DNA of 64,000 nt from Yuukianura sp. NJ FZ-2021 (GCA_046563655.1 CM102285.1:10912001-10976000), one strand, 5' to 3'. Shown: positions 33,001-63,826, counted from the stretch's first letter. Notes: generated by a model from the sequence alone, not told the origin. Made by a program: numbers and translations.

Positions 33001-36000
33001 AAAGTCAAGTTATAATAAAATCCCTATTTTACAAAACTTGAAATTTTAACCGGCGTTAAAACTGTGCAGCAATTTTTTTAAACCCAATTTGAATCTGCAG
33101 AACGGATGTGCCCGAAAGGTGATATCTATGCGTGGGAACTAAGAAAAACATGAAGGTTTTTTAAAAGTTTTAAAAAGTCCAGAATTGACCTTCAAGTTTT
33201 CAACCGATTTTTGAAAAAAAAAAAACTCTAGTGGCAAATTTTGAAAAAAAATGTGCTATTGTCGACGCAGGAATTATTCATTTCGAACCAGCTTTGGCAC
33301 CAATTATTGTTGTAATTACGATACGATATTAGTCCTGTAAATCTGTTATGCGTAAGGATACGTTTTTACGGTGTATTTATTTCAAATTTTGAAGCTGGAG
33401 TCAGAGATTTGGTCATTTTTATTTGCAAAAAAAAACTTAAACATTTGAAAGTGGCTAATTTCTGTCTTTCGATGTACTTTCTAGATTCACCGAAAATGTC
33501 TCAGCTACACCGCTACAGTGTACCATTTGCAGGTTAGTTTCACATTTCAACGTTTTCCAATCTTTTGTTTTTTTTTTTCGAATTTCGAAGTTTGATTTTT
33601 TTCAAAATTTCAGGAAGGTTACCGCAACGTCCATTGTGCCATGTGCAATGGGATTTTGCCCGAGAACCTCTTCTGTGCTCCGCATGGAACAAGTCGCTCT
33701 GCCTTCCATTTTGAATTCAACCAAGCCGCTTTCAGTCAATTGTTTGACCTTAACCCAGAATCTGGAAACGATGTTGGAAAAATCCGGAAGTGTCGCCCAA
33801 GTGAAATTTTCGATCCGTTTTTCCAAAAATGTCGAGCAATCCTCTGTCAACCTGGGCAGTACTACAACAATGGCCAGTGCATCAACGTGGTCACGACGAC
33901 AACCACAACGACTACGTCTCAGAAGCCGATTGACATTGTCACTGGAAATGATTTGGAGGAAACTACTACGGGATACTTTGGTCAAGGGTCAACTGAATCT
34001 AGGAACAGGTCAACAGAGGAAGAAGAAGCAGAATTGTTTGCATCTTGTCCCAAGGTCATTCTGGAACCCTCCGAATATGGAATCCTCCAAAACGGAAGTG
34101 TCTACATTCGAGAATATGATTTGGCAATATCCAAAACCGGCTATGCAATTCAGAGTAACGATCGTTTGGTCATCTGCTCACCCAAAGCCACTTACTACAT
34201 TGACAAGTTCGGAGCTGTTTGGGGTTACATCAGTTTCGTTGGCGTCCTCATCTCTGTCATTTGTCTCCTATTGCATCTCGGAGCTTCCGCAATTGTTCCT
34301 GAACTTAGGAATTTATCCGGAAAAAATCTTGCTTCTCTCTCCGTGGCTCTGCTGGTTGTTTATTCAATTTTCCTTGGAATGCCGCTTGTCCAGATTCCAG
34401 GGTCAGCTTGTACTGTGATGGCAGTCATTTTATACTACAGGTAAGACTGAAAACAAAGAAAAAATCGTAAACAAGTCAAAATCATCATTAAAATTTCATC
34501 TCATTTGCTAAATTACTCGTAACAAAAGGATTCATTGTCAATTGTAAAAAGAAATCAAAAACTATGTTCGATTTGAACAGTTCGACGACCTTGGGAGGAT
34601 CTTTTTCTGAGAAATGAGATTCATATTTTTTGTGCTATAAGTTTTGCGTGCCAATTTCATGAAATTGAACAAAAAGTTGAGAAGGTATTGTTGTTGGAAA
34701 AATCTGGTGTGACAAGTTCCAAAATCCATGACTACTCGAGTCATGTCTAATGCGATCCCTTGAAAACTGTGCCTTTTCATGTTAACAAGCCTTCTAACAC
34801 CTTAGATGAGGAGAATTATAAGAAAATGATGCATGTCTAACTATACATTAAAGTTCCGTTAGCATCCTTTTCTTCTTTGGCAACCGAATTTTTATATAAA
34901 ATGGGCGCATGCTTCAACGATAACTTAAAATCTTCACCAAAAAAAGAATTTTAGCTATTGTTCTGTCAAGCGCGTCTAAATGTGTCCTGTTTTGTGATTT
35001 TTTCGACGCCAAACTTTTACTGTTGTGTTCGTAATGGTGCGAAGCAAAATGAGATCCTACTGAACTCTAGTCATCTGAAAATTAACTGTAGTTTGGTTTG
35101 ATTTTTTTCATGTGCCCTGATTTTGTCACCTCCACAAATCCTTACTCAAAATATCACTTTACCCGTTAACAGTTTTTTTTTCATGATTTTCAGTTTCATG
35201 GCTGCCTTTTGTTGGATGCTGATCCTGGCGTGGGATGTGTCAACAACTCTGCGAAGAGCTACGCAAGAGCTAAGAATTTCTTCTGGAACGCAGTGGACAA
35301 GGTTCATTTGCTACTCAATGTTCGGATGGTTGTTTCCAGCCGTTCTGGTCACAATTGCTGTCATCGCTGAACTTCTCCCGAGCGATATCATGTCTTGGTC
35401 GTACAGTCCAAATTTTGGGCATCAGACGTGTTGGTTTGGTCATAAACCGGCGCTGCTAATTTATTTCGTTGGACCCGTTGGATTCATTCTTCTTCTAAAC
35501 ATCATCCTGTTCATTGATTCAGCACGAATGATTGCTTCCACGACGCATGGTACAGCAAAAGCCAAAGCCTGCGGCCCTTCACATAAAAATTTCAAGTAAG
35601 GCACAAACTACTGTAACTAAACTTGAATTGAAGGTATACATAAGACAAAAGTTAATTAAGAAGAGGAGGAGTAGGAATGGATCTGACCTGAATTGTTGAT
35701 TCTTGGTAATTTCCGCATTCGCATCGATTCTTGCTGTTTTTTTTCTCAAGTCCATTGTTACTTTACAATAATGCTCAAACGCAAAACCTAAACCACGAGA
35801 ACAAGAGAACTTTAAAATTATGTCATCCTGCGTAATCACTTCCGTCCGTCTTCTTTGTGTGTAATATCATAGCTGACTAACTTACTTTGGTTGGATAATA
35901 CGAAAAGTGAAATTATTCCATTGTTGTCTTCTTGGTTTCAGATTGTACATGCGGTTGGCTCTTCTGATGGGAATCAGTTGGATCATGGGAATTGTTGCTG

Positions 36001-36374
36001 GGTTTGTTGACGTCTCCATCCTCTGGATCATTTTCATTCTTCTCAACACCCTTCAAGGACTCTTCATCTTCTTAGCCTTCACTTGCACAGCTAAAGTACG
36101 AAGAGTTCTCAAAACAAAACTCTGCTCGTCATCTCCTCCAACAAATGCTTCCTGGACATGGTCTGGAATTGGAGTAAACGGAAATAAAAATATGATACGA
36201 ACTACCTCATCTTCATCAGCAAATACCAAAAGATCAGAATTAGAATCCAGAGATTCAAATGACTCACATCACAGTGTCAGAAGTATTCATTCCCAGCGTT
36301 CAGCCCTTCACTCTCTGGGACGCAGTGGTCATCACTTGTACGGAACTTCTGCAAATTCAGCTTACATGGCCTAG
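30025..36374 (+). CDS. Family-B/Methuselah-like 7TM GPCR with N-terminal somatomedin-B-like and Cys-rich ectodomain, about 858 aa
   Basis: Exons 30025-30495, 30845-31240, 33485-33532, 33614-34440, 35194-35595 and 35942-36374 join in frame. Signal-like segment ILVVLLLIASVTC; SMB-like CNCDQQCIVYEDCCVD; two YxNxxCAxCN repeats; Thr-rich stalk; 7TM_2 hallmarks LRNLSGKNL, FMAAFCWM, YSMFGW, CWF, LMGISW and LNTLQGLFIF. Confidence 0.88.
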
Positions 36375-36984: not shown

Positions 36985-38162
36985 CTATTTCTTCTTTTTC
37001 TTCTCGGCTTCTTCTTCCTTCTCTTTCTCCACTTGTTGAACATATTTGTCGATTCGTTCAATATCCATCATCTAGTAAAACCAAATTCAATTTTCAAAGT
37101 TAATTTTTGCAGTGCTACGCTTGAGTGAGTGTGAGTTTGAGTTTTAGTTTTGCCTGTAAGGGTTCCCCGGGTCGCATGATGGCCAATTCCAAGTTTTTGC
37201 CTCCCGACTGGACAACTTCTAGTAAAGCACGGATTGCCAGCTTGACGGTTTTCTCTTCCGTATCAGTTTCTTCTGGGGAGTAATACTTCTCCAAAAATTC
37301 GCGAACCTGGAATAAGGTACGGCATTGTTAGGTAAAATTATTCCGATTCAGTCAGTAAACGAGTCAACAAAAACAGTAGGGTGTAAGCTATTACCGTTTT
37401 AGCATTACGTCCAGTAGCATTTGCTTTCCATTCATGGAAAGTTCCGGACGGTTCCGTTTGATAAAGACGAGGAGTTCCGTCATAATCAAAGCCACCGATA
37501 AGACATGAAATTCCGAAAGGTCGCCGACCGTTACTTTGAGTATAGCGCTGCTTCAATTCTGGAAATCGAAATAATTAAGTTTCACTACATTTTGCTTCAC
37601 ATCAGGGGCCTCTTGCCCATTGTTGGATCTATGCATTATGTTTAATCGAGGTTTACCGGCAATATAACGGGTGATGTATTCCAGTGTCACAGGGTCTTCC
37701 ACTGTCAGTTTGTGAGACTGGCATTCTACTCTGGCTCGGTTTATAAGTATCCGGGCATCCGCCGTCAGACCTAGGAAAAACATAACACCGACGTTTTCAT
37801 GTTTTATTGTATTACCTCGTTTAAACGATAATTGTCATTTCACAACTTCAGCAGCATTTACCAGCAAACGCCATCACTACATGATTATCCAGGAGACAAA
37901 TTTTCCGGACTGTCCGCTCTTCCTGAAGCTTGGCAACCGACTTCTTTTCAACTCCTAGAACAACACACGTCTTTCCTCTAACTCCGACCTGAAAATAAAC
38001 CAAATTCAAATCATGTCAGTTGCATAAGGTCAAGATCATGTCATGTTCAGTACTCACCGCAGTTGACCCCTTCTTGACAGCTTCTTGGGCATACTCAACT
38101 TGGAACAAGTGACCATCAGGCGAGAAGACGGTAATTGCTCGATCATACTTGGCACTTCCCAT
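36985..38162 (-). CDS. PSMA7: 20S proteasome subunit alpha-4 (alpha type-7), 249 aa
   Basis: Exons 38058-38162, 37862-37988, 37657-37770, 37395-37558, 37154-37306 and 36985-37071. Motifs [50 protein letters not shown] and [14 protein letters not shown], plus the charged tail [14 protein letters not shown]. Confidence 0.97.
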
Positions 38163-42638: not shown

Positions 42639-43470
42639 ATGGAAGACGGACTTCGAGTGAAGAGCAGACGGAAGATTCAGATGAGCAGAGATGAAAGTGA
42701 GGATGGAATTACAGAAATTCGCGGTGAGAAATTATTCATTACTTAAGTGGAATCATTCAATTGACTCTGCAAAATTTAATCTCTTCACAGAAATTTCGTA
42801 CAAATTTTGATAGCTTGTACTAACATCCTATTAGCACTTAAATAACTTAAGTGATTATTGTTCATAATTTAATAGGACACACGCTCATCACACCCAAACC
42901 ACTTCCAAATCCTGTTTTGGAATCCAAAGAACGGAAGGAGCTCCACCGTGAACTGTTGTGGAATCAGAGGATGTGAGTTAACTAAATTAGTTAACAATAA
43001 AAATTTACTTAATTTTGGGTTAATTACCCCAATTGAGCAACAGTTCAGGAAATAGTTTGAGAATTAGGATGATTGTGCAAGGGGCCTTAACTGCACCGCA
43101 CCCTTGCGAAATTTGTTGCTCCGTGGTACTTAAACTTAAGAAGAAAGATGAGGAAAGAGGATAATGTTAATTTTTAGCACTTTGTACCCAAGTTGCTAAA
43201 GGTGCTAATGAGCTTAACGTTTGGTCCTCATTGAATGTACTGTTAGGCATGCAGGGGAAGCTATTAATCTATTCAGAATACAAGCTAATGATTCGGATTT
43301 GTGTTTCTTTTAGTGGTCATCAAGTGCTAAATACCAAGTCAGAACTGCAGCGAGCCCTGGAAGAAAGACGGTTTCAGCAAATCCGTAAAAATCAGGCGTC
43401 TGAAGATGCTCCGCTACCTGAATTTATGCAAGTCCACAAGCGGATTACAAGTGGAAATCAAAGTAGTTAA
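42639..43470 (+). CDS. FAM107: FAM107-family protein (DUF1151), about 112 aa
   Basis: Exons 42639-42723, 42876-42972 and 43314-43470. LITPKPLPNPVLESKERKELHRELLWNQR and KSELQRALEERR match the FAM107 signature (LIxPKxLxNP...LHRELL...ELQRxLExR). Confidence 0.88.
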
Positions 43471-45962: not shown

Positions 45963-48900
45963 ATGGAGGAGGTGACGTCTAAACAAAATGGTGCAATTGG
46001 GAGTGACATAGTTGTACTTGCAATCAGCAAGTCAGAAATCGAGCCTCCCGAAGTACAACTGGAGAGCAATTGTGGTGACGAAGATCACGACGACGACAGA
46101 TTTAATCCTTTCCTAAATGTGACAGACCCGTATTCAATTTCCAGTGAACACTTCCTGGAACCAGAGTCTGACAAAGACAACTGTAGCCAAGCTGACAGCT
46201 TACTCAGTACCCCTGTACACAAACGTTCAGAGGAGGTGAGCAGTACGCTGATAATCAACGAGGAATCGGTATGGGTCAAATTTTCAGAACAACAATATCT
46301 TCATTGACGAATCTCAACGAATCTCATTTACTGTTCTTTTTGTTTGTTGTATTTCAGCCAATTGATGACTCTGAGTTTAACATTCCGGAAGTCGATTACG
46401 AGCCGACACTTGAAAGCGTATTGAATGACTTAGATCGAGAATCATTGTACGATGAAGAGGACGTTACTTCTATACTGCCTGGATTTGGATTTCATCAACC
46501 GGACGATACCGCACAAATACCGAAGCTGGTACTATGAGTTTTTAGAAAGTAAAGCGTTAAAAGGGGTTAACCTTTACATTCGTTTTTGTTATATTGTAGG
46601 GTAACTTCCCGGATGGTAGCGACACAATCTCAATCATTTCCAAAGAAAGTTCGGGTAATCAAAGTAGAAGTTCTAATAAGAACTGCAAGCCGAAATCAAG
46701 TGTAAACAACGTGAAAAGACCGAACTCGATACTTCGCCATGTTGTTCTCAAAAGTATATCATCTCAGATAAACTCTGCCTCTGTAAGTTTTGCGTAAATC
46801 CTGAACCCTGAATCGTTTATTAGTGGTACTCACGCATGTTTGCAGTAACTTGTTGTTCATAGTGAATTGATAAAATGTTGATTTAGGAAAAACTTAATGC
46901 TGGCAGTCCAACGGCAATCTGCCTCGGATCATTGGTTGCGATCGGGACGTCCCATGGATTCGTTTTAGTTTTTGACGTTCTACAAGTGCTAAAGTGGTGC
47001 CTAGGGGAACAGAGTCTTCGTGAGGCTGGAGGTTCTGTGAGCAGTTTGACAATAAATCCGAATGGGAGCCGATTGTTGGTAGGATACGCAAAAGGTCTAA
47101 TCCTTATGTACGACCTCGGAAAAGGCAAATTAATTCGGTAAGTAAATCCTTCGTCAACTACTATTACTAATCATTGTTTATAAAGTCTGACACAGTCACT
47201 GCTTTCTTCCAGAACTATCTCCGATGCCCATGCAGTGGCAACAGCAGTGCTGACACTCAGGGTAAGACAAATCACTAGGACTTGAATAATGTAATCCCTC
47301 ATTGTCATTATGTTTGCAAGCCGTATGTCCGTTTCCTATTTCAGTTCACCGATTTGCCAGATCTCGCACTTTGTGGTGACAGTGGTGGCTCCGTGTTTGA
47401 GCTCAATTTTAAACGCACAATTGGAATTCGGTCTTGTGATCCTCGATGTATCTTCTCTGGCAGCAGGGGCGAAGTATGCACGTTCGAGCCTTTACTTTTA
47501 GCATCTTTTCCAGAAAACCCACTCAGCAAATTCGTTTTAATCGGGTTCGCTACTCTGTCAAAGGTATGATTTCTGTATATTATTGCTGATCGTTTCTATT
47601 TCTATTTGGCCTCCTTATAAATTCAAATTGAATTTCGTTTCAGATTATCGTAGTTATGATTCGACCAAAGCTAAAAGTCTTATTCACGCACCCGCTACCC
47701 TGTGATCCAACTACACTTCCTCTAGTCTCCTGGCAAATGGTCATCATTCAAACAACATTGAATGAGAAGATTGTTGATCCAGTGCTAAGTTTTGCTCGTC
47801 AAAACGTTATTACATTTTACCAAGTAAGATTTCTCTTAATCACACCTTTATTGAGTAATTGCTGTGCAAGGGTTTAAGATAAAACTCAATTGCAGGTGAC
47901 TTTAGATACCCAAAATACAATTCGATTTCTTCCATTACGAACCATGACGTTGGGCTACAGCTTGCTGAATATGCATTGGCTAAATGCTCGGACGTTGGCC
48001 TTGGTCGACATAAAGGAGAAGCTAAGGATCCTCGATGTTCGGTCACAAGAAGAGCTGGAAAGCATAGACTTGTCAGGAACGAGATTAGTTTACGCCAGCA
48101 GTCATTACAAAGGACTCGCCACTGGAGGAAACGTCAGCAAAGCTTTTGTAAGAACAATGAACTAGAACTAACTCTTATTTTACTAATAATGACTGCTCTC
48201 AATTCGAAGTTTATTGATTATTCGTCTCTTTTTTCGTAGGCTCTAGCTGGGGAGCGTGCTTGCTACAACTCGATCTTGTGCCACAGCAATTTCCAAATCG
48301 TTGTGTTGGGTACAAAATCAGTCCACGCCTTAACAATGAGGTTATGGCATGAGAGATTGGATTACTTGGTTCGACAACACTATTATATTGATGCAATTCA
48401 GCTTGGGTATGAGTTGTATCTTGCAAAAGCAAAAGCCGTTGTTGGACTGGAAGGAAACAAAAATTCCAAACGACTGATCGTCAGGGACAAGGTATTTCAA
48501 AACAACGCAATAAAAATTATTCTAAAGTGCAGTAGAATTGGTTTAATCGTTTTGTTGCTTTGCTTTTTAGATTTTAAATATTCTGGACCGATTCGTAGAC
48601 CGAATTCCACTACAGAACTTCATGGATGACCTTACCCAAGCTTATCAGAAGTATCACGAAGTCATTTATACTTGTATAAATTACTACGTCATTCTGGAGA
48701 ACATGTGAGTGAGTTTAAGTTGTAATTTAGGACTTGATTATAGTTGTGTCTGAAATTCTTTTTTCTTGTAATACAGAGATCCAATATTTGGCAAGCTGTA
48801 TGAATTCTGTATTGAGAATCCTTTCTCCAAGTCAGCCTACCTTGAATCTTTGGAACCATTCATTTTAAATGATCAGCTGAGACAAATGCCGCCTGTGATT

Positions 48901-51900
48901 GTCAAGGATTTCGTTACACATTATGATGAAATCGGGAACTACAAGGTAAGCGGATGTATACTTTTTACTTTAAGACTTAGGGAGTTATATGCATTCATTG
49001 TTTAATTGAAGGCGCTGGAAGCGTGCATAGTTCATGTGGATGTTGCTGCTCTCGATATTCACCAAACGATGAAGTTGTGCTGGGCTCACGGACTGTACGA
49101 CGCAATCATTTATATTTACAATCAAGCAATGAATGACTATGTTACACCGCTGGAAGAGCTTATGACTGAACTGAATAGTGCTATTTCTGCAGGTAGGCGT
49201 ATGACAACTTTCACTGATTTAACTTTTATTTGGTTTGCCTTAACTAATAATTGCATACACATTATTTTTTTCTTGTAGAGGCACAACTGACAGATTCTCA
49301 AGTTATTCTTGGGAACAAACTTTTGGTTTACGTATCGTGTTGTCTTGCTGGAAGAGCTTACCCATATGGCAATATTTCTCCTAACTTGGTGGAAAAAGTA
49401 CAAACGAATGTGTTCCAGTTGATCACGTCGCTCCACTCCCGAAATTCCATAGAAAGCGAAAAGGGTTTCCCGTATTTACGGTAAGTCCTGAAAAAGTAAC
49501 TCAATTACTGAATAACTGAATGAGTATTACTTGTGTAGTATTACTATGTTAAAAATGAATTTTGTTGCCTTCCAGAACGTTTCTTCATTTTGACACGAGA
49601 GAATTCCTGAATGTACTTTCCCTTAGTTTTGAAGAACCAATTTTTAAATCGGAGCTGGGAAAACGCCAAAAGCAGAGAATCGTTGACATTCTACTTCAAG
49701 TGATGGTGGAGCAAGGGAATTTTACGGTAAGTGATATGCTCATTATAAGTTTTAATTCACACTATTCAATTTCCTTCATTGTTTTGCAACTAATCTCTTC
49801 TAGCCGACACAAGTTGGAATCCTGTTCACCTTTCTGGCGCGACAAATGGCCAAACCGGAAAGTAATTTATTTGTCAGCAAACTACTTTTTGAGCAGGTAA
49901 CTTTAAATATTGTAAATCCTTTATTATTGTGTTACTTTATTATTGTGTTTTGTTGTTGTTCTTTTTTGAATACTAGGTTTTGGAACATTTGACAAGCGCA
50001 AATGAGATTTCACGAATTGATGAACGGCAGCAGGCGTTAATGGAACTTCTTCTAGCCGGCGGCTTGCAGCATTTTGATTCTGAAAAGCTGCTGCAAAAGT
50101 GTCTCAAAGCAAAATTGTGAGTTACTACAAGAATCATGAAATTCATGCTGTATAGCATTCTGTATGTATTCCGTGTTTTAGCTACCGTGTCTGTGAAATG
50201 CTGTATGAACGGAAAAACGACTACTCACAAATTATTGACTGTTATCTTCTGGATGAAGCTCGGAAACATCAAGTATTTTCTTTCTTGCACAAAATATTCT
50301 GTCTGATGCCTCAGAAGAAGGAGGTGTTTCAAGCGAGAGTGATGGAGCACCTAGAGGTTTGTCTGACGCTTTAGTCGAAGTAATTACCTATATATGTATT
50401 ATTTCATACTTTTTTTCTCATTTTGGACAGGAATTGATTGAGATCGACAATAAGAAGTGCGCCCAAGTGGTCTACCTTCATCTGGGGAATCTGATACCTG
50501 ACCTAGTTAGATCTCTAGATTCTAAACCTAGCAAGCAATATTCGTTTCTCCAAGGCGTCTTTTTCACCAGGTAAGCAGTCATTTCTGTTTGGAAGTATTC
50601 TGTGTGCGATTCGAATGAAAGGTTGAGTAACTGGAATTGTCCATTGTTGTTTTCATTATCCGCAGGGAAGAGAATCAAAATAATATTCAAGTCGATATTT
50701 CAACCACGGAGAAGTACATTGGATTGATGTGTCAATTCAATCCACAACTTGTCTACCCCTTTCTTCAGTCCATAGAATCGTATAGATACGAGCAAACGCT
50801 GGAGGTCAGTGTTAAAAACCAATTGATTTCATTTCATGTCCAACCAATTAATGACGAAATCTGTGTGTGATAGATTTGCAAAAAACACAAACTAATAGAT
50901 GCCATGGGATATTTACTTGAGAAAGAAGGATACATCAACGAAGCATTCGATCTGATGTTGGACCAATTTAAGTCGAAGTTAACTCAAGTGAGTAACTAAA
51001 TCGATTTATGCGCTACAAAAAATTATTTATCTAAACACTGTACTGTACCGTTTGGTTACTCTTGCTTTAGGTTTATTCTGAAATTGAACATTCTGGTGCC
51101 ACAATTGTTCTGTCAAGTATTTCCTGGAATCAACTCCAAGCCATCTTCCTAGTCATGATACAATTTTCTCAAAGAAATTCACCAAAACTTCTTCCGAATG
51201 ATAAGGAAACGCTTTGGTTGCCACTTCTGCAGCTCCTGATTTCCGCCCACAACAAATTCCAGGATAGAAGCGATGTTAGCGCTGCCTTCAACGATATGAA
51301 CAAACATTTACTTGGAAGCATGATGGGCCATGTCTCTCTTCCAACAATTGTCGAAGTTGTTCTGAACAATCCTTCGTATCGGACTGCTACGTTTGGTGAA
51401 ATTCGTGAACTGGTGACAGGTATGTTCCGAATTGCATAAACAAAAGTCGAGATTTGTTGCTCTCTCTATTTTGTCAATTTTTGCTTTTATTTCTATTGAA
51501 GGGATGCTGGAAACATGTACCTACGAAGAAATTATGGTAGACTTGGTCAAAAAGATTACGCAGTCCGATGTGCATAAGAAGATGACTGAGAAATTGAAAC
51601 ATACGAGAAAAGGCGTGCCATGCAAAAATTCAATTTGTACAGTTTGTGATTCTGGTATTGTGGACTATTCGTCGGATGAGTCTGAAATCGTCGTCTTTCA
51701 GTAAGTTAGCTTAGTAATTCCCAGTTTAGTTTTAATAAGGAATGGCTTATCTAAGTTTTGATTTCGTTTTGTAGATGCGGACATTCGTATCATTTGAATT
51801 GCTGCCAAAGAAGGGAAATGAAATCATGTCCCCAATGTACACCGCCGAGTGTCGTTCCAAAAGTCACTTCCGTAGTAGAATTGGATGCTGGATTTCACCA

Positions 51901-52423
51901 TCCAAGACAGCACACTGCCTCATTGTAAGTTTCCATTTTTCTTTGTTTTTGCTTGGGATTTGCAAAACCTGAACGCTTTGTGTTTTGAAATACGGGGCTT
52001 TTTATAGCTTTGAAACACGAAGGGTGTTCTGTGACCACAATCGAATATGGCAAACGGGATAAAGTTGTCTCTAATGGTTATGGTAGCGTGATGAAAGTGA
52101 AAATGTTTCTAAAACTGAAACGTTTGCCAAAATTGTCTTTAAGTCACATACAGTCTTTCGTGACGCATTACCTTACCGGTGATTTACAAATTGTGAATCA
52201 CAATGTTCTTATGAAACCTTTCCCTCCTTCCGTGCTTAGAGTGAACTAACATTAGCAAAATATAGTGAGCAGTGAGTAGAAACATTGGAATTGAATGTTA
52301 CCACTGATTTTCAGCACTGTGAACGAGGGAAATGATGTCCAGAACACTGGCGCTTTCATCAGTCATGCAGAGTTTGGGCTGAAGCTCGAAGTTCCTTTCA
52401 AAGTCAATCTCAAAGAGTTCTAG
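45963..52423 (+). CDS. VPS8: Vacuolar protein sorting-associated protein 8 (CORVET subunit), more than 20 exons
   Basis: Acidic N-terminus; beta-propeller region (VAIGTSHGFVLVFD, DSGGSVFELNFKR); VYASSHYKGLATGGNVSKA; LGNKLLVYVSCCLAGRAYP; FDTREFLNVLSLSF; clathrin-repeat-like solenoid; C-terminal RING-H2 (CTVC...CGHSYHLNC...CPQC). The terminal exon 52315-52423 is inferred from frame. Confidence 0.93.
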
Positions 52424-52653: not shown

Positions 52654-54260
52654 TTAGACTGTGTCCAAATTAAATATCTTTTCCAGCTCTGCTTCTATAA
52701 ATTCAGTCATTTCTCTTAAATTGTCAACCCCCCTTATAACATGAGACTCCGCTGCTATTCCAATTTTGACATATTCATTGTAACTTAGGATAGAGAAAGC
52801 TAATCCATTAGAACCAATTACGGGATCCCAAAACATGACATCGGACATGAAATTTCCAGGCCAGAGATGTCCAGCCGCTGTAGGTCCAGGCATATTAGAG
52901 TAAAGGAATCCAGTACTTCTACGGGAAAGGAAGCATTTGGCTATCGACAGTGGCAGGATTCCAACGACCTTGAGAAAATAGTAATTGGCAATAGGGTAGG
53001 GCGAGGACACGGTGTTCTTGAATTGGGCGTTGGCAATTTCAAGTCGTGTATCAAGACTGTCACCCTTGAGAGGTATCTTCATATCGGCAATTCCGCTGTC
53101 AAATTTCAAAAATCATCGTGTTTTTTTAGATTCAACAGGAAAGTTACGTTTTTGTAAGCAAAAGAGGATTGTTTATGTTATGGTTTTTCTATTTGCTAAG
53201 AAAATTTTTCGTACCACCAATTGATGATAGCGTCATTTGGATGTTTTGGCAGCGGGACAAATGCAACACCATTTAAAGTGTCTGCCAATCCACTCAAATC
53301 CTTATTGGCTCTTTCACTTTCCACTTTCTGTAGGAAATTTCTCAAGGCAGCGGAAATGGAAGCATTGAGAATTGCCGTAAAGGGAACTCCAAGGCGTAAC
53401 TTTGCTCGTTTAAATTTGTGTAACGGTATTTTGCCAGTACTTGACATGAGCACTTTCCCACTAAAACTGGAAGAATGCGGATTCTGGAAGGGCGTTTTCC
53501 GTTTTAGTTCCAAATTTTCACGAATGAATTTTCCAGGCAAACCGAAAGTTCTCCTGTAAATTTTCTTGAGTTTGTGATAGCAGGCTTCTTGCTTGTAAAC
53601 CGATTTAGTTGGAAATATGAATTCGTTTGGATTAATTTTCATTCCGCGTGTCATGATAGTTTTCAAAATTGAAAATCCGTCACAAACGACATGGTGAATT
53701 CGCAGGTTAACAAACGTTTTGTTTGTACTTGGAGCAAGCGTGACGTCCCACAGGGCTCCATCGGCTGGAAATGGCTGTCGAATTTGGGTGGACATGAATT
53801 GGTGCTTGTCTTCGGTTAGGATTTGGTCAGCCATTTTAACATGGTCACTAACACTGAAATTTTGAATCCACTGGAAGAAAGGGAATCCAAGCCATGTTGT
53901 TAGAGATTGTTGAAGACGCGTGTAAATCAAATCACCATTTTCATGACGTGCATTGACAATGTCATTGCTGATGTTTTCTCTAAATTCAGCAAAATTTACT
54001 TCTCCTTCGATTGTAACTAAAATTGAAATGACAAATTCTGGCCTAGTGGCCCACCTAGGATCGTTCACTAGAAAAAACACGTCTAATTCAGATAGGATTG
54101 TGTGTAGGCGTGTAGAAAATTTTGCTAAAAGTTTAACAATTAATCGCCAAAGGTAAAATGGACTCAAAATGATTAATGTGAAAGGAAAGATAACAATGAA
54201 AACCAGAAGTGCTAAGAGATCAAAGATCGCTTCAGCAATTGAATTTGGAACTCGCCCCAT
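52654..54260 (-). CDS. Wax ester synthase/diacylglycerol O-acyltransferase (WS/DGAT, WSD-like), 495 aa
   Basis: Exons 53215-54260 and 52654-53095 join in frame. N-terminal hydrophobic helix; catalytic HHxxxDG motif (RIHHVVCDGFS); C-terminal SNMPGP and FSILSYNEYVKIGI typical of the WS/DGAT C-domain. Confidence 0.85.
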
Positions 54261-55902
54261 TTTAAAATGAAAAGAATCTAAAATTAAGTTAATTTGGGCT
54301 TAACTTTTAGTAACACTTTAACTTTAATTGAACAACAATGTTTTCTCTCCTATTGTCGGAGAGAGACTAAAATGAGAGAAGTAGTCCACACTTTACACTT
54401 TGTGTTGAGGACTTCGTTTGATTATACAATGAGGAATTGTTCAAAGAAATGTAAATTAAAGAAGAAATGGCAATTGACTTTAAGATTCAAGCGCAAGAAG
54501 TAAAATGAAGACGAAAAAATAAGCAGGACGGAGTAAACAATTAGAAGAAAAAAAAAACATGAGTTGTCGTACTACACAGTTAGCATAACGAGTTACTAAC
54601 TAACTTTGATACTTTAAAGTTTGAAGAAGATGAAAATCTTGACTAACCACGGCATGAGATTTTCCTTCTCTTTCAATTGAAAACATGCTTTTCCATTTTT
54701 TTTCTCACGTGAAATTTTGTAGTGAAAAGTGGGAGAGTGCTAAAATCTGATGAGTAACTTAAATGAGGGATGAAGCTGGTTTTTGAGTCAACTTTTGTAA
54801 ATTTTTACAACCTTAAACGACTGCTGCGCCTTGTGATGAGCAAGCGGTGGCATTTCGTGTGAAACTGCCTAATTCCTTGTGTTTTTTTACAGTAGGGAAG
54901 TTACATGTATTGTCTAAGTAAGTGTATTGGAAATTTATTGATGAATTTGCATTGCGAAAACTTGATATTGGAAATTTGGACAGTGCAGTGGGTCTGATAC
55001 TTTGAAGAGATATTAAAATTTTGATACCTCCTTTGTCTCATGCTCAGTTTTTGAAACTGACTAAACTTGTTTGTCAAGAACTCTCAATTATCAGACAAAC
55101 TCGTTCTAACCTACCTAATTTGACATTTCAAAGTCTCAGCATACAAAAACAAAAGAAATGAGGTAATCCAATTTGCAAATGTATACAAAAAAAGCTGGAA
55201 TAATATAGTGGCTACTTGGTGTGAATACGGTTTAGGTTAGTGGACCTAAGTGGTTTAAGTGTTTCAGTAAGTCAGTGATTAATTAAGTAATAGTCATCCA
55301 GTTTTACTTTTACTAAACCCTTTCCGTGAATTTTGATGAGAAATAGGCCGAAGCGGAAGCTGGTTTCGTATGTATCTTCATTACTTGCTTTTTTTTTTCA
55401 TTTATCCTAAAAACTGCGTAGCGTTTTTGAAAATTTTGAAAAACAAATTGTCGTCATTAAAATTCATTGACGTGGGTTTGGAGAGTGTAAAAAATTTTGA
55501 CGTGGTTCCAACAAAAACATGAAATCATATCAATTTAATTCTAGGTACTCAACGCTTACGCATGAGTTATGCATGTTTACAAAAATTTCTACAAAATAAT
55601 TAAGGTGTTTTTAAAATTTCCTACGAAGGTATAATTAATTGCTATGTTTTTTACAACTAAAATCATTGGATTCCAAAAAAAAAAAGTTTGCAAATTTCAA
55701 AATTTGCAAGTAATACTTTTTCGTTATTTTGATGCATGTCAGGTAAAAGTACATGTGTAATTACAGCTTTGGCAGTATAAGGACACGACCCTTAATAACT
55801 GTTGTGGCTTTGTTGGAAAATAGTTTAAGGGTACATATTTTTGATATTCCGGTTTAATTTAGTTAGTTGTTTAAAAAAAAAGTTGAGATTTTGTGAAACC
55901 TT

Positions 55903-58900
55903 TTAAGGAATCTTGTCCGAAGCGTCATTTAGTTTAGACTTTTCATGTTTTTCTTTGCCCTTGAGGTATTCCAGCATCCTTGGAGCCAGAATTCTAGTTC
56001 GTAGAAAGTACATTGTAGTTCCCATCAAAATACAAAATCCAACAATGAGCCAAAATGGAATTATGGACGACGACGCAAGTCCGGTTTGAAAGGGTACGGT
56101 ACAATTCATTCCAAAGAAGCCACTAATGGCTTGAATTGGCAAAAATACTAGAGCAAATTCACTAATTCGTTTCATCACTAGACTCATGTCGTTGGCCTCT
56201 CGAGACTGATCTGCACTTACAATTGCAAGAAAAGTGTCCTGTGACCGCTCCAAGATGTGGTTGAAGTGGGTTAGATCTTGAGTTTGTTCTCGAAATTCAT
56301 CATTGATGTCATTAAGCAAGTTCATTACAATGCGATTGATTCGTTTGTTGCACTTGACTTTGAGGTGTCGAAGAACCCGTGCTTTGGGTTTAACGAACCT
56401 TCCAATAGAGTAGACTTGCAGTTCAAGTTCAAAGATCCGTCTCATAATATCCGACATTTCCATGCCCTTGGTATCACGAATTTGGTTTATAGCGGGTTCT
56501 ATAAGTTGAATTGCAAATTTGGCATCTTGGTTCATTTCAACAAATACAGAGAACATGACCCAATCCGGACTGAGTGACATACGACAATGACTGATGAGGA
56601 GATTCAAAAAGCCCAAAATGTCTGCGTTTCCAATCCAAACTCGATCGTGCATCGTGATGATAAAGTCCTTGAAGAGCAGAATGTTAAAGTCAATGTCTTC
56701 ATTCTCCTTGCGATCTTTGATGTTTTCAGTCATGAGACGTAGGGAGAAGAAAGTATAGTGTTTGAACACCTCGACTTTATCTTCGGTGTTGCCCTCTCGG
56801 ATGTCATTAAGTGTGAGGTCATGAACTCCGTAGGAATTGAATAGTGTATTGAAGTCAGTTTCATTGGGGTCAAAGATATTGAGCCAAAAGTTGGTTCCGC
56901 TGAGAAGTTGTGAGTAGTTTGGAGCCAAGCCTTCCAGGAGATCGGATTGCAAAAGTTTCGTTTTGTCAGAAAAGTAAAAGTATTTGGTTTGCTTCAAATT
57001 TTGATACTTGTTAAAATCCAGTAGAGTCTTGGTATTGATTTCTTTGGGTAGATTGAAAATTGGGACGATAGGTATAGTTTCATCGGCTTCGAAATTGTAG
57101 TCAATGTCCAATCGAACCTAAATTAGAAATTTTGAAGGATTTTTAAATTAATTTTTTACCATTTCGTTTTTGGAAAAGTTTATGTTTATTGGTTCTCACT
57201 GTAGCATCGAATCGTGAGTTTCGAAAAACACGATTTTCACGTCCCTTTTTCAATTTTTCGTAGATTGTAAGTACTTCAGTCAATTCGGTATTTTCAAGTG
57301 AGGTGAGTCGGTTGCGACGACGAGTCGTGATTGGAAATCCGCCAACATTTGTTGGTGACATATGCGGTTCGCGAATCTGTAAAATTCCCACAAAAAACAA
57401 AAGAGAAAGTTAAAATACTTTGCAAAATTGCAACCAAACATGTTTCTAAAACTAGTACTACTCATATCCCCCATGCAGTTACGAATTGGCACGCGACATA
57501 AATTAGTCATTTGACGCTGCTTCTACTGCTCCACTCGTTCTCAAAACTCGAAATTTTTATGAAAATGTCAAGAACATTAAATTCGTCCCTAAATTTTCCT
57601 CGTTTGGTTTTTGATGTTGAGTCCAATGAAATGGCAGATTTACAATTCCTACAGACTCGTTTTAGTTCATCGAAGGTTTGTAAGGTTAAATTCTTGCATT
57701 TACTTTAGTATTGCAGGGATTTAGTTCTAATAATTCAAAAATAAGTTTACCACATCAGAATGTGCTAGCCGTTGTAGTTTCTTTAATTTTTTGGCCTGAT
57801 TTTTTGAAGGACTAGTTTGAGTAGGAGTTTTTGCGGTTTCGACTTTGACTTCGTCAATGTCCGTCTTTTCTTCGTCAGCTTCGATTATTCTAGTCAACTG
57901 ACTACTTTCGTCTGCTGAATCAGGAGATTCCGGACTTGCTAATAACTTTTCTTTGAGATCATCATTGTCGTCGTCGTTTGATCGAAACCGACCACGACCA
58001 GGAGACGACGATGATGACGCTCCTGGAGATCTTCCTGGAAACATTATTCACTCCTACGTAATAAACTATGCTGAGTCTCTTCTAGATTTCACTGAGCACA
58101 CTCAACTCTTTTGTCCGTCTAGACTGAATAGGAACTGAATACTGAAAGTTTGACAAGAGTTTCGTTTCGTTTTCGGAGTTTCGTTTTCCCCTTTATGACG
58201 TTTCGTTTTTTTGATCTTGTGATTTTTTTGAACTATATGTTCTAATTTAATTGGCGAATCAGCACTTGGAAACGAGTAGGGCTTTGAATTCAATCCCTCT
58301 GCGGGATTACCAAGTTGCTTTGTTCGTAATACTAAAATTGAAAGCTTGCGAAAAGCCTCTACTTTCCTGGTTTTGGTTGATAACGACAGTCTGTCAAGAC
58401 CACAAAGAGAACATTTGCCATGTGCAAAAGCCTAGACGATGATGATGTGACTCGGCTTCCCTTTCCCCTACTTCGTTTCTATTGAATTTTTTGCAACGAA
58501 TTCGGAGCTGTGGAGTCGGTTTAAAAAGCTCTTTGACTGGGGAAATGAAACTTTTAGGTGAGGAATATGAACGGAAACTTCCAGTTGCACAAAGGAATCT
58601 CCCCTCTAAAAATTTTTTGGCAGATGAGATGTTGATGCTCGTGAAATTCAAGGGCAAGGTTTGAGCGTGACGGAGCCAAGAAGGTTTTTGGAATAGTCTG
58701 TTATTACTCATTCCATTTTGGATTGTGTTAGGATAGACTATTGTTGTTACAGAAGGACAAAAAATAGCATTATGATCTGAATTTGCAAGGCACATTGCAC
58801 TTTTGAGGATGGATTTGGCAGTAGACTTAGGCATATCAACTGCAATTTTGTTTGGATTGACGTCAAAAACTTTTGCGCAACTATTTTCGAGTATTTAGGA

Positions 58901-59292
58901 GCATTTTCAACTTGGATTTCAAAAATCCGATTAGGTTAGTTTAAAAAAATTGTTAAATTGACTAATTGACAAACTTTCGACAAATTTTGAAGCAGAATTT
59001 GACTTTTGAACTTTTTCCTTCGTCTTTTTTGCAATCAAGGGTAAACGCCACTTGGAAAATTATTTGTGGAATTGTTAAGAAAATACGAGGGTTATTTATA
59101 AAAAGTTGTTAGAGGCATTAAGGAATTGCGAGTTAATATTTTTTTAAAATTCTGGATTGTATAAGTTGAGTTTTCGAAATTTGTGCTTACTTTTGTTCCA
59201 TTTGATTTTGGTTGAGGAGGACTTTCTTCCGAAGTGTCTGATTTGAAGCTGTCTTCTTCCGGAACCACGGGCAAATCGCTAACGCGAACCAT
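55903..59292 (-). CDS. CorA-family Mg2+/divalent metal transporter, paralog A (ALR1/MNR2-like), with two candidate first exons
   Basis: Exons 57200-57376 and 55903-57117, preceded by a phase-0 first exon at 57751-58044 (561 aa) or 59191-59292 (497 aa). Motifs WLNIFDP and YGVHDLTLNDIREGNTEDKVEVFKHYTF; long stalk helix; two C-terminal TM segments with FLP...FFGMN. Confidence 0.88.
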
Positions 59293-61144
59293 TTTAGTTC
59301 TGCGCTCCAGTTTCTGTTCACTATTTAAAGTTTTTTGGCAAATGAAAAGATTGACGATGAACTTAACTTCCTGTGAGTGTTTCTTCCTGGAACTCTGATG
59401 TGAAACAAAAACTGAATCCTAAAAGAAGCTTGGCCCAGCGACAAATGCAGTGTAGACAGGAGGACAGTGTCGATAGCCGGAATTAACAAATTTCCAAAAC
59501 TGGCGACGTAATGAGTTTAGTTTTAGAGTGACTCTTGTGAATAGGAAATAGGATCTCGTCGATTCTAGATTCTACAAATATTGATAACAGACCATTGACA
59601 CCATTTTGAACCGAAGCAAATCAATCCTGTGACCTGTCACTTGACCTTCAGCAACGAGTAACAATAGGACTCAAATGAGGCGTAGTGACTAAACTAGTAC
59701 AGAGACAAAGGTCAACCACGAGGCGTTTTGTGGAGCCGAAAGTGCTTGGTTTGTATATTGTTAGGATTTAATGCACTTTTTAATTACTTTACACTCGTCG
59801 AACTTACTAATAATTTTCGAACACGTTAGCTAAATCCAGAACTATACGATGCAGCAGATTAATATTTCAAGTGTGCATAGTTAGCAGGAATTTGGATTCA
59901 ACAGGGTAACCGCTAGATTTGAAAATTTTAGCACGAATTGCCTGCAGTGAAAGCTTAAATTTCAGTTTTTCTGGGATTCCAATCTTGAATACTAAGAAAA
60001 TTTCGTAGCTAATTTCACGTTTGTCTTAATTGCTTCCCCTCGTGTGGGTCATAATGAGTAGGATGCGATGTTGCATAATTCTTCATTTTACTCTCGGGTT
60101 GTTGAGTAAAAATTATGGTAGATATGATTTGGAAATTATGAGTTCCGCGACCGCATTGTCACTCATGTTATTTGGGTTTTTGATTAGATTGATTAGAAAG
60201 GATTAGCAATGTTTAAGTGTATTTCATCGCGTATAATACGCGCGTTATTTGTGCAATTTTGCATATCTTTGGAGTAAACAAAAATTCTTTTTCTGCAAAC
60301 TAGATTTTTGTTTAAAATACGTAGAAAAATGTCTGAAAATTGCTAAACTCTACTCGAAACTGTTTCGATCTAATGTTAATTTATAAAATCCTTCATTATC
60401 GCTGTGGTTAGGGAAATGAAATTGGTACGGAACGTCCTCTGTACTGAGCAGATTTTCTGGGTGCGTTTTATAGAGTACAAATTATAGACGAGGAAATACG
60501 TTAATTTCTGAATTCTTGGCCATGGTTGAATTAGAAGAGGAAAATCATTTTTAATCCTTCCTTACTAAAAACTGGAATTTTTTAGTTTCTAAAATTCGAA
60601 GTTTTAAATGTTTGAAAAATATTTGACATGTGCGTCGTACACAGAAAATTTAATTTTGTCTTGCTTTTACTGTCAAGTCGAGAAGTTTTTAGTTAATTCT
60701 GTTCGGCGGGTTACTTACGATTGATCTAATTAATTGTGTTTAAATACATCTACTATATCTACCTCTCCTTTCACCTTCATAATAAAAGCATATTTAGAAC
60801 TACTAGGGAGACCCGGCACACGTTTGATACTTTGCGGTTTCTAAGAAAGGGCATACAGATTTTAAAGGAATATTTTTTAACGAACAAAGTTAAAAACAGT
60901 CACAAATTGAAATTAATTTGTAGTTTTGCGATTTAGATATGCTGGTATTGTTGTTTTCGGATTTGCTACAACTGTACTGCTGCAGCCAAATAATTTTACT
61001 GTAACCAAATTATTTACTAGAACACGTGAAGTACCATTAGAATCTGTAGAAAATCTGTTGCTAGTCCTGTCAAAAAATATTTTGAGGCTAATTGGCTACC
61101 TACCTAGTTAGCTTAATTACTTTGAGGCTAATTCCATAGTATAG

Positions 61145-63826
61145 TTACTTAAATGCGAGGATTTTGTTTCTAAGAAGGTACATCGTGAGGCCAATGCACG
61201 CAGAGATGCCCACAATGATCCAAAAGTACATTTGAGATTCGTACGCATTATTTTGCCAAGGAACAGTCACATTCATTCCGAAGAAACTTCCGATGGCCTG
61301 AATTGGCAAAAAGACCAAAGCTATTTCACTGATTCGTTTCATGACCAAACTCATTTCGTTGGCCTCTCTGGACTGATCTGAAGTGACAATAGCTAGGAAA
61401 GTGTCCTGTGACCTCTCTAGGATATGATTAAAGTGGTGTAAATCGTGCGTTTGTTCTCGAAACTCCTCCAATATGTCCCCGAGTAACCTCATCACAATTT
61501 TGTCAATTCGTTTGGAGCACTTGACCTTTAGTTGTCGAAGGATTCGCATTTTGGGTTTGATGAACCTTGAGATGGTGTAAACACGCAGTTCCATGTCGAA
61601 ATTCCGCCTCATAATTCCACTCATTTCCATTGATTTACTTCCCACTCGAATTCGATTGATTTCTGTAGGCGGAATTCGCACAGAAGTAATTGGATTAGCA
61701 ATTAGGTTATGACCTTTGGCAAATAGGAAAAACAACTTTTGCATTTGCTTTCACTTGAGTTTGAGGAACATACCGGGTTCAATGAGATCCATGACATATT
61801 TGGCGTCTTGGTTCAGTTCGATGAAGCAGGAAAACAATACCCAGTCTGGAGTAAGGCCAGTGGAGTGTGTTGACAAAAGATTCAGAAAACCCAAAATATC
61901 CGGAATACTGGGCCAATTTCTGCAAAGTTTTCAAAATATGCCAGTTTCAGAAAAATTGTTTCGTGATGGTTCATAATCAGAACTAAAAAAACTACATAAA
62001 ATGTGCCAATCCTTGCAATTGTTTTTGATGTTAACATAATCTCTAGGCCAAACCTTGAATTTCATTAATATTATTAACCTAATAGGTTAGGTTAGGTTAG
62101 TTTTTTGCCTTACTTGTCATGGACGGTAATAATGAAGTCTTTGAAAAGTAAAATGTTAAAATCCACATCTTCGTTTTCTTTTCGATCTTTTACAGAATCT
62201 GGAATTAGTCTCAAGGAAAAGAAAGTGTAATGCTTGTAGGCTTCAATTTTCTCTTCAGTATTTCCCTCTCGAATGTCATTAATTGTTAAATCATGCACTC
62301 CGTAACTGTTGAAGAGAATTGCAAAGTCTTGTTCATTTGGATCATAGATATTTAGCCAGTAGTTTTTGGCTTTGAGGAGTCCAGCAAAGTCTGGTGAAAG
62401 TTTTTCAATCATATCCGATTGGAGGAGATTAGTTTTCTCTGAGAAGTACAAGTATTTAGTAGGACGGAAATGTTTGAACTTGTTGAAATCTAGCGTATTG
62501 TTGGCATTGTTATCAAAGGGGACAGTCACAAAGGACGGTATAATTGGAACCTGGAAGAAAAGTAAACAAAAGTTAATTAAAGTTTCATTAAAAGTTGAAA
62601 TTATAAACAAAACTGCTCAAATCCATGCTATCAAGCAGGCCAATTCCAAGTACGGGAAAATTTCAAAAGCTTTACCGTTTCTTCGGCTTCGGTAAATTCA
62701 ATGTCCAGTCGAGTCGAAGCATCAGTAAAATTTGATTGTCGGTAGACGTTCTGTTCGTCCCGTCCTTTCTTAAGTTTTTCGTAAATTGTAATGACCTCAG
62801 TCAAGGCCGTATTTTCAATAGACATTAGCCGAGTCCTTCTGCGTACTCGATTGTGATGAGTTTCCTCTTTCTCAGCAGTTTCCATTTCCTCCGACTAGGA
62901 TTTCAAACAAAGAAGCACTTTTAGTATAGTCATTTCCAGCTAGGTTTTTAAAATTTTTTAATGCTGTACTTAAATTGTAGGCGTTAGCTGAAATTACAGC
63001 CAAATTTGTTGGGTAATGCAAACCTTGACGAAAATTAATGGCGATTTCGTAATGGCCATTAGAAATTGAACGATTTTGGCCAATGTTAGCAAACTATGGA
63101 GAAACTTGAGCAATCGGAAGAACTAAAATTTGTCCTTGGAATCTTAGTGCTGTCGCTGGAACACTTTTTTCTGGAAGCATTCACTTTTGAATACTAAACG
63201 CTGCTCTGGAAAATGTTCTAGAAATCCTACAATTCTGGAACGAAAACATTGACGTATCGATAGAAATTAGGAAAGTATCATGTAGTTTCATTCCTTTTTT
63301 TAGAAAAACACTGGATTACGTGACAAATTCGAAATGGATTATAGAGTTTCGTTCGTGATGAGAACGATAGGCATAGAAAATAATGAAGGATACACGTATT
63401 ATCGATGGTACACTCATTAGCAAAACAGAATGGAGTGCTTTTTCCGATGGTTTACCATTACGTAAATCCCTTAGCATGTCAATAATATTTCGCACGTTTT
63501 TTGTTGTTTCTTGCAAACAAAATTTAGTCACTTTTAAAAGTCCTTCAACCTCCTGAATCTGCTCTGAAGGTTTGTTAACCCACATTTTACAACGGAAACT
63601 ATTTTTGCGAAAACTTTGGGAATTTTACCAAAACCGGAGAAGAGGAATAGGCTGCGTTGTCGATTCCGTCTTCTTCAGTTGTTGACATTGCCGAACCACG
63701 GCGGTACCTCGTGTAGTTCCGGATCAAACTGGGGTCAATGTAGTTGTAACTGAAGTGTGGCCTACGAACCATTGTCGGTGACGATAATTGATTAGGCGGT
63801 GATCCATCAGTTATTGAAATTCGCAT
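61145..63826 (-). CDS. CorA-family Mg2+/divalent metal transporter, paralog B, about 505 aa
   Basis: Exons 63629-63826, 62676-62894, 62114-62550, 61774-61919 and 61145-61662 join in frame. Motifs YGVHDLTINDIREGNTEEKIEAYKHYTF and FLPIQAIGSFFGMNVTVP; clearly homologous to paralog A. Confidence 0.88.

Follow-up and report, generated by a model that had tools for sequence, protein, structure and literature searches.

How did two genes for CorA metal transporters of a non-Mrs2 type come to lie among the genes of an animal? The question is raised by a 64,000-nucleotide stretch of Yuukianura sp. NJ FZ-2021 (GCA_046563655.1 CM102285.1:10912001-10976000), hereafter the window, which carries two CorA (PF01544) genes, A and B, on the minus strand within positions 55903-63826. 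The portion of PMC13022745 on CorA grouping places animal CorA proteins with the mitochondrial Mrs2/Lpe10 group and treats Alr1/Alr2/Mnr2 as a distinct fungal group of plasma-membrane and vacuolar proteins. A sequence-only reading of the window had proposed that A and B are of the fungal type and were acquired from a fungus or microsporidian. We found that both genes belong to one clade with the CorA genes of Microsporidia and are embedded in an arthropod genome, and we lean towards a transfer from a microsporidian lineage into hexapods.

The two genes are arranged head-to-tail, with B upstream and 3100 bases between them, and are 68% identical across 416 aligned codons. Position 55903 is the first base of the stop codon of A and 63826 is the A of the first ATG of B. 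Splice sites were read off the sequence and the joined frames were verified by script, giving a gene A of three exons and 561 amino acids (58044-57751 / 57376-57200 / 57117-55903) and a gene B of five exons and 505 amino acids (63826-63629 / 62894-62676 / 62550-62114 / 61919-61774 / 61662-61145). All six introns are GT..AG introns of 82 to 734 nt, and internal stops are absent. The features of the two genes are as follows.

55903..57117, minus strand: last exon of gene A, 404 codons plus stop, with the whole CorA domain (PF01544, 1.8e-31; acceptor TTTCTAATTTAG; structure model; Foldseek)
56104..56112, minus strand: GMN signature of gene A, at the end of the first membrane helix (sequence; G336, M337 and N338 nearly invariant in alignment A3)
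57200..57376, minus strand: exon of gene A with the RRRNRL...VLTIYEKLKKGR block and an alternative start codon at 57359-57361 (in frame across the 82-nt GT..AG intron; homologous to the N-termini of P0001-P0006)
57239..57274, minus strand: N-terminal motif VLTIYEKLKKGR of gene A (motif pattern match)
57751..58044, minus strand: tentative first exon of gene A, 98 codons, Ser-rich and acidic, proposed from an open frame, an ATG and a GTAAAC donor in phase
61145..61662, minus strand: last exon of gene B with stop, membrane helices and GMN (PF01544, 5.3e-17; splice sites)
61271..61279, minus strand: GMN signature of gene B (sequence)
61774..61919, minus strand: exon 4 of gene B (splice sites and continuous frame; gapless alignment to gene A)
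62114..62550, minus strand: exon 3 of gene B, whose 3' intron lies in the HDK codon in phase 2 (PF01544, 3.4e-10; same intron place and phase in the A-type gene of contig L007)
62676..62894, minus strand: exon 2 of gene B with VITIYEKLKKGR at 62760-62795 and an alternative start codon at 62883-62885 (sequence, splice sites, motif)
63629..63826, minus strand: tentative first exon of gene B, 66 codons, proposed from an open frame, an ATG and a GTAAAA donor in phase

The large exon of A (55906-57117) matched the Pfam CorA profile with an E-value of 1.8e-31 (110 bits, for a cut-off of 27), and two of the three B exons scanned did so at 5.3e-17 (62.5 bits) and 3.4e-10 (40.2 bits) with the same cut-off; the scan gave no match for the B exon at 61751-61930 or for two N-terminal pieces. 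The motif WLNxxDP reads FWLNIFDP in A and YWLNIYDP in B, and the HDLT...DIREG-type block reads GVHDLTLNDIREGNTEDKVEVFKHYTF in A and GVHDLTINDIREGNTEEKIEAYKHYTF in B. The GMN signature lies within FFGMNCTVPF (A) and FFGMNVTVPW (B), where the first of the two membrane helices near the C-terminus ends. Since all of the motifs are present in the spliced models, with GT..AG introns and an unbroken frame, the description of the pair as two intact, intron-bearing CorA paralogs was confirmed.

The same reading had also given both proteins long acidic or Ser-rich N-terminal tails, and a long extension before the CorA domain is a hallmark of Alr1/Mnr2. Open frames with an ATG and a phased donor do exist, but the first exons of A and B gave no Pfam match (for B, within the part inside 62631-62894 that was scanned) and have no counterpart in any related locus. 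The N-termini of the relatives start about 5-25 residues ahead of a conserved ITIY motif, and translation from in-frame start codons located at 57361 in A and 62885 in B would yield proteins of 458 and 436 amino acids. On these grounds we regard the 5' exons as tentative, the long extension of both proteins as unproven, and the resemblance to an Alr1-like tail as unsupported.

A structure model built from a 98-row alignment reached a mean predicted local distance difference test (pLDDT) of 88.6 and a predicted template modelling score of 0.76; it superseded a first, poor model from a 10-row alignment (pLDDT 51.9). In the model, strands and helices make up an N-terminal domain, and a helix of about 75 residues (262-336) runs up to GMN; after a loop comes a second, hydrophobic helix (353-376). 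In a Foldseek search of the PDB, CorA of Thermotoga maritima ranked first (8.2e-15, TM 0.53/0.63, 19% identity across 341 columns), and CorA of Methanocaldococcus jannaschii was also matched (1.5e-11). T. maritima CorA, a solved pentameric Mg2+/Co2+ channel, was likewise the best solved relative in a PDB sequence search (1.5e-12), with GMN at the same position in the alignment. It resembles A in fold and GMN position but differs from A and B in that it is bacterial, about 350 amino acids long, and without their N-terminal ITIYxKxKKGR motif.

Structures of Mrs2 have been solved and are in the PDB. The sequence matches at E<=1 included no chain of that name: apart from two weak and unrelated matches, they were nine CorA-type chains from bacteria, eight of which are called CorA or 'divalent cation transport-related protein'. 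Nor was any Mrs2 among the 22 Foldseek matches listed (ranks 1 to 49, extra chains of the same entries omitted). Together with the Pfam and fold matches, these searches identify A and B, at the level of sequence and model, as CorA proteins of the GMN type outside the Mrs2 branch, as had been claimed for them. Mrs2/Lpe10, the usual animal member of the superfamily in the mitochondrial inner membrane (PMC13022745, in its part on this group), shares the superfamily and the GMN signature with A and B.

By analogy, A and B are most likely CorA-type divalent-cation channels for Mg2+. The pentamer, the GMN filter and gating by Mg2+ are established for bacterial CorA. By homology with solved CorA proteins, five subunits would form a cytosolic funnel, made of the alpha/beta/alpha domain and the long stalk helix, and a pore with the first membrane helix as its lining. 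Hydrated Mg2+, and also Co2+ and Ni2+, would be selected by the GMN loop, and cytosolic Mg2+ bound between subunits would close the pore.

Relatives and phylogeny

An exhaustive search of 1.84 billion representatives returned 1824 matches at E<=0.001, only 31 of which reached 1e-30 or better, and the identity of full-length matches dropped from about 34-66% to about 24-32%. A word-indexed search gave 19 matches, six of them with an organism name: three from the microsporidia Astathelohania contejeani, Nematocida homosporus and Spraguea lophii, two from the springtail Folsomia candida, and one from the sciarid fly Pseudolycoriella hygida. Look-ups of 30 proteins yielded five organism names, with Nematocida sp. 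AWRm77 and Dictyocoela roeselum in the close set and Rozella allomycis, Pigoraptor chileana and Schizosaccharomyces octosporus outside it. The named microsporidian holders represent four genera, and the named animal holders are Folsomia candida and the sciarid fly only. In the Atlas, the nearest cluster is one of CorA proteins, with Microsporidia as its most frequent phylum. In a profile search with alignment A1, word-sharing candidates crowded the result (six matches, four of them useful), and the search was not used for taxonomy.

With 15 of 171 CorA-type proteins dropped for covering fewer than 260 profile positions, a FastTree of 156 rows grouped 31 rows, the close set, at a support of 100, with a branch of length 1.0 leading to them. 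For a more careful tree (LG+C20+F+G4, 403 columns), we used 46 rows, namely the 31 close rows, a partial Folsomia protein and 14 outgroup rows picked from FastTree; fragments and the long-branched P0154 and P0024 were omitted. The resulting close set of 32 rows was supported at 100/100 and consisted of an animal clade of 14 rows (100/98) and a microsporidian clade of 18 rows (92/85) as sisters. A branch of about 2.1 changes per column parts these animals and Microsporidia from Rozella, Schizosaccharomyces and Pigoraptor. Furthermore, the strict pattern ITIYxKxKKGR occurs in 18 of the 171 proteins, all in the close set, and in none of the 124 more distant FastTree rows. This motif is a character independent of branch lengths.

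Within the animal clade, gene A (winA) pairs with P0001 (100/100) and gene B (winB) with P0004 (100/97); therefore, the A/B duplication is older than the split from those species. P0005 and P0006 form a second sub-lineage. The third comprises Folsomia and the sciarid fly, whose protein pairs with the partial Folsomia protein (100/100). The gene is thus not confined to this genome and belongs to an animal clade of at least three sub-lineages. The N-terminus of the sciarid protein is long, basic and nearly acid-free, which suggests that members of the clade may reside in different membranes.

The pairing of the Pseudolycoriella protein with the partial Folsomia protein (P0016/P0018) stands inside an otherwise springtail-like animal clade. 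It could reflect a second transfer between soil arthropods, or a fly assembly that contains DNA of a springtail. Terpene synthase genes are reported to have passed from mites to sciarid flies, and springtails hold such genes too, according to the part of PMC11665903 on these genes; that case is a precedent for the pairing of fly and springtail observed here.

A maximum-likelihood phylogeny had been suggested as a check on the foreign origin of the pair, and in it A and B did not group with a broad vertical metazoan clade. Joining the animal clade to the only named holozoan pair (Pigoraptor) cost 142.9 log-likelihood (lnL) units and was rejected in an approximately unbiased (AU) test (T3, p-AU 5.7e-43), which rejects a simple vertical history of the animal genes separate from that of the microsporidian genes. 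The gene tree therefore conflicts with the species tree, as animals and Microsporidia are united at 100/100 and animals with the holozoan pair are rejected. Constraint T4 (lnL difference 361.8) was ill-posed, in that it parted Schizosaccharomyces from its close kin, and no inference was drawn from it.

The microsporidian proteins of this clade, from Nematocida, Astathelohania contejeani, Spraguea lophii and Dictyocoela roeselum, are annotated as 'magnesium transporter' or 'putative metal ion transporter C17A12.14'. Their identity to the large exon of gene A is 36-44% for the three named in the word-indexed search and 39-41% for the two named by look-up. They share with A and B the domain order, the ITIYxKxKKGR motif and a GMNV..VP.Q sequence after the first membrane helix, but their genes are uninterrupted in compact DNA, as in contig L006, whereas A and B have introns, arthropod neighbours and a place in the separate animal sub-clade. 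L006 is a metagenome contig of 196 kb; its portion 1-20933 is compact and apparently intronless with a G+C content of 0.48, and its CorA is 72% identical to that of Nematocida sp. AWRm77. It also encodes two DEAD-box helicases, an amino-acid transporter and a Spt20-domain protein, and looks like an environmental Nematocida-like microsporidian genome.

In the animal clade, the Folsomia candida proteins are named 'Magnesium transporter ALR1' and 'Manganese resistance protein MNR2', and the Pseudolycoriella hygida protein 'putative metal ion transporter C27B12.12c'. These three are 40-46% identical to gene A and are encoded on chromosome-scale records of 7-193 Mb. They differ from A and B in belonging to another sub-lineage, and the Folsomia protein of 601 amino acids has a large acidic insert. 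All these database names were transferred automatically from yeast and are at odds with the tree, 'ALR1' and 'MNR2' being misleading.

The fungal Alr1/Alr2/Mnr2 type is, like A and B, a non-Mrs2 eukaryotic CorA with GMN, and it is the next-nearest group after the microsporidian one. The named members of our comparison set were Schizosaccharomyces octosporus CorA, Rozella allomycis and Pigoraptor, with Saccharomyces cerevisiae Alr1 and Mnr2 absent from it. This group differs from A and B in its low identity (24-32%), in the branch of about 2.1 changes per column that separates it from them, in lacking the ITIYxKxKKGR motif, and in length, many of its members having 600-1500 amino acids while the conserved N-terminus of A and B is short. 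Judged against this set, A and B appear to lie outside the fungal Alr1/Mnr2 type proper. The proposed acquisition from a fungus or microsporidian stands in its second half, as the nearest kin are microsporidian; an ordinary fungal donor is unlikely.

In the one full-text library searched, we found no description of springtail CorA genes or of their transfer from Microsporidia to arthropods, and no assay of a microsporidian or animal member of this subfamily. Two supplement files of the Folsomia genome paper make no mention of CorA-type genes. The microsporidian-type CorA subfamily is without a name in the literature searched.

Genomic setting, introns and constraint

Two neighbours of the pair recur in another species and are listed first.

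46346..51934, plus strand: VPS8, flanking host gene (Beta-prop_VPS8 up to 6.8e-29, TPR_Vps8 3.5e-9; colinear with L007)
52654..54299, minus strand: WS/DGAT-family acyltransferase, flanking host gene immediately downstream of gene A (PF06974, 9.8e-14; same neighbour in L007)

L007, a metagenome contig of 10.6 kb from another species, is colinear with positions 46.3-56.9 kb of the window and carries an A-type CorA, the WS/DGAT gene and VPS8 in the same order and orientation. The window also contains HID1 (PF12722, 7.5e-57). When its 11 exons were compared with 120 proteins, that of the springtail Allacma fusca was the best match (1395 bits, 73.7% identity), followed by a cockroach protein (1255 bits). 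From this comparison, the host lineage of the locus is arthropod and springtail-like. The sequence-only reading had set the CorA pair among metazoan genes, and HID1, VPS8 and a proteasome subunit were confirmed; the FAM107-type gene that it also named corresponds to a weak, sub-threshold match.

The G+C content of the window is flat (0.33-0.41). At third codon positions (GC3) it is 0.41 in A and 0.45 in B, compared with 0.37-0.43 in HID1, WS/DGAT and VPS8, and the codon use of A and B correlates with that of the host genes at 0.62 and 0.45, the host genes correlating among themselves at 0.50-0.62. We also followed contig coverage of the region in four public runs from two coded organisms. Contig depth was even from 47 to 62 kb in three of these, at about 170-290 (X1), about 24-82 (X3) and, except for one stretch, 3-8 (X4), and one run contig (54225-56211) spans the junction between WS/DGAT and CorA. 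The host neighbours, the host-like GC3 and codon use, the even depth, the junction contig and the colinearity of L007 make contamination or chimerism of the locus very unlikely; the run contigs did not reveal the chimera that had been named earlier as a refuting outcome.

The exceptional stretch in X4 is the spacer between the CorA genes, where depth rose from the 4-8 seen elsewhere to about 14 (58.0-58.7 kb) and about 50 (58.7-60.0 kb). No Pfam match was found in the spacer (58000-60000), which is probably repetitive DNA present in several copies in that organism. In run X2, one contig joined 57958, in the region of the first exon of A, to 62182 in exon 3 of B, skipping 4223 bases. Many loose contig ends of this run start with GATC, and we tentatively ascribe the join to ligation in a proximity-ligation library, in preference to a deletion allele.

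The A-type gene of L007 and gene B of the window have an intron in common, in the HDK codon and in phase 2 (L007:230-420 and window 62114-62120), at a place where gene A of the window is uninterrupted (56640-56660). This shared intron indicates that introns predate the A/B duplication and that gene A later lost one. The L007 gene has, in addition, a phase-0 intron between MSL and VMKR that is in neither window gene. Across the animal copies, intron number and position vary widely, whereas the microsporidian copies are uninterrupted in the compact contig L006; such variation is expected of a gene that entered without introns. In one metagenome, the animal-clade copies on L002, L005 and L007-L010 have one to five introns. 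Those on L001, L003 and L004 are uninterrupted over the whole conserved core and have low-GC flanks free of open reading frames; they may be retrocopies, genes of intron-poor species or transcripts in the data set.

Gene A and its L007 counterpart are 86% identical at the amino-acid level over 314 codons, with a proportion of nonsynonymous differences (pN) of 0.10 and of synonymous differences (pS) of 0.93. For gene B and L002 (382 codons, 82% identity), pN was 0.10 and pS 0.91. The adjacent WS/DGAT exon is conserved to 66% between the window and L007, compared with the 86% of gene A. The low pN against a saturated pS, a saturation that precludes a numeric dN/dS, shows at the sequence level that A and B are under strong purifying selection, in agreement with the earlier view that the pair was duplicated and kept.

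Origin of the hexapod genes

The history that we favour, with modest confidence, is that the CorA gene moved from a microsporidian lineage into hexapods. An ancestor of the springtail-like hexapod lineage would have acquired it from a parasite that was a microsporidian or belonged to the microsporidian stem. The gene would then have settled beside WS/DGAT and VPS8, gained introns and host codon use, and given rise by duplication to the A type, the B type and perhaps more, with A and B both kept under purifying selection. We infer the direction of this move, as we would its date, from the distribution of the gene and not from the tree: four named microsporidian genera and L006 hold the gene, versus two named animals, and the introns of the animal copies are uneven.

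Several observations weigh against this history. The tree is without transfer direction, as the animals are sister to the sampled microsporidia and not within them, and nesting the animals with the non-Nematocida microsporidia, an arrangement neither preferred nor rejected, cost 1.38 lnL units (T1, p-AU 0.43). How the joint clade connects to the rest of the eukaryotic CorA proteins is unsettled, with a cost of 13.0 when the whole close set is joined to Rozella (T5a, p-AU 0.12) and of 3.2 when it is joined to the Pigoraptor pair (T5b, p-AU 0.29), which leaves room for a holozoan origin of the whole clade. Branches are long on both groups, and some mutual attraction is possible. The HDK intron common to A-type and B-type genes makes the residence in animals old. 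Finally, an organism name was available for only 5 of the 30 relatives looked up, and the animal range given here is that of the named members.

Both groups could instead have taken the gene independently from an unsampled eukaryote, or from a donor indistinguishable from stem Microsporidia. The sister topology, the unbroken stem of about 2.1 changes per column and the many environmental relatives are compatible with such a donor. None was seen among the 1824 matches in 1.84 billion representatives, and two transfers would be needed in place of one, so that we hold this alternative to be unlikely.

A transfer in the opposite direction, in which an arthropod or another animal gave the gene to the ancestor of canonical Microsporidia and the hexapod copies descend from the source lineage, appears more unlikely again. 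Animals and microsporidia are reciprocally monophyletic sisters, joining their clade to Pigoraptor costs less than joining it to Rozella, and host-to-parasite transfer into Microsporidia is in print (PMC4313915 and PMC3337132, in the parts on such cases). Such a transfer, however, requires loss of the gene in nearly all animals, given one springtail and one sciarid fly as named holders and just 31 of the 1824 matches at 1e-30; it also has to account for a family present in four named microsporidian genera, from which introns would need to have been removed.

That an ancient CorA paralogue of opisthokonts survived solely in Microsporidia and some few hexapods is highly improbable: an Alr1-type CorA in the unicellular holozoan Pigoraptor does make the wider family older than animals, but the grouping of animals with Pigoraptor without the microsporidia was rejected (T3), the derived N-terminal motif is shared with Microsporidia only, and very many independent losses would be needed. 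That the assembly fused contaminant DNA, from a microsporidian or a fungus, with host sequence is barely conceivable, even with parasites of arthropods as the nearest named relatives, in view of the GT..AG introns, the host-like GC3, the even depth in runs of two coded organisms, the contig that bridges WS/DGAT and CorA, the matching gene order of the independent contig L007, and the different character of L006 as a true microsporidian contig.

Under a transfer from Microsporidia to hexapods, the kind of molecule would not be new, as CorA channels are known and springtails hold many foreign genes (PMC5490193, in the part on such genes); what is unusual is the partner, Microsporidia, and the cargo, an ion channel. 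The relationship of A and B to microsporidian genes points to an exchange of genes between these parasites and the arthropods that they infect. For a working membrane channel to pass towards the host would be unusual, the printed cases in the parts of the two papers cited above having microsporidia as recipients.

A more detailed scenario, which we put forward tentatively and regard as doubtful, is that the gene was captured near the base of springtails and expanded to several selected paralogue lineages, one of which later reached sciarid fungus gnats from a springtail-like arthropod, much as terpene synthases are proposed to have come from mites. If so, it would constitute a functional parasite-to-host transfer from Microsporidia to animals and, for the capture near the springtail base, a shared datable marker linking the age of canonical Microsporidia to that of Collembola. 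Animals move Mg2+ across non-mitochondrial membranes by unrelated proteins, and by present accounts mitochondrial Mrs2 is the one branch of the CorA superfamily that they retain (PMC13022745). A hexapod family of non-Mrs2 CorA proteins would be an unexpected route for Mg2+ or other divalent cations, with several copies under purifying selection; a part in soil metal homeostasis, as the sequence-only reading suggested, would be conjectural. The conserved insertion site beside VPS8 and WS/DGAT offers a clean locus for scoring presence or absence across hexapods.

Other genes of the window

Apart from HID1 and the genes listed above, the following features were identified by Pfam.

5108-5374, minus strand: exon of a Ras-type GTPase
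33459-36374, plus strand: secretin-family seven-transmembrane receptor (7tm_2)
37341-38015, minus strand: proteasome subunit
43171-43467, plus strand: weak, sub-threshold DUF1151 match

The proteasome subunit matched at 1.1e-17 and has at least three exons. The DUF1151 match (9.4e-5, 22.9 bits) is below the cut-off of 25; DUF1151 is the FAM107 family. An Rfam scan of the window gave no match. The WS/DGAT gene (52654-54299, minus strand) has an HHVVCDG motif, and its C-terminal domain matches Pfam while the N-terminal catalytic part falls short of the E 0.01 threshold; its closest Atlas cluster is arthropod, with bacterial clusters next. In the HID1 comparison, the entry from Ditylenchus dipsaci (P0172) scored 386 bits, far above other matches, yet at only 76% identity, which suggests a repeated or duplicated region in that entry.

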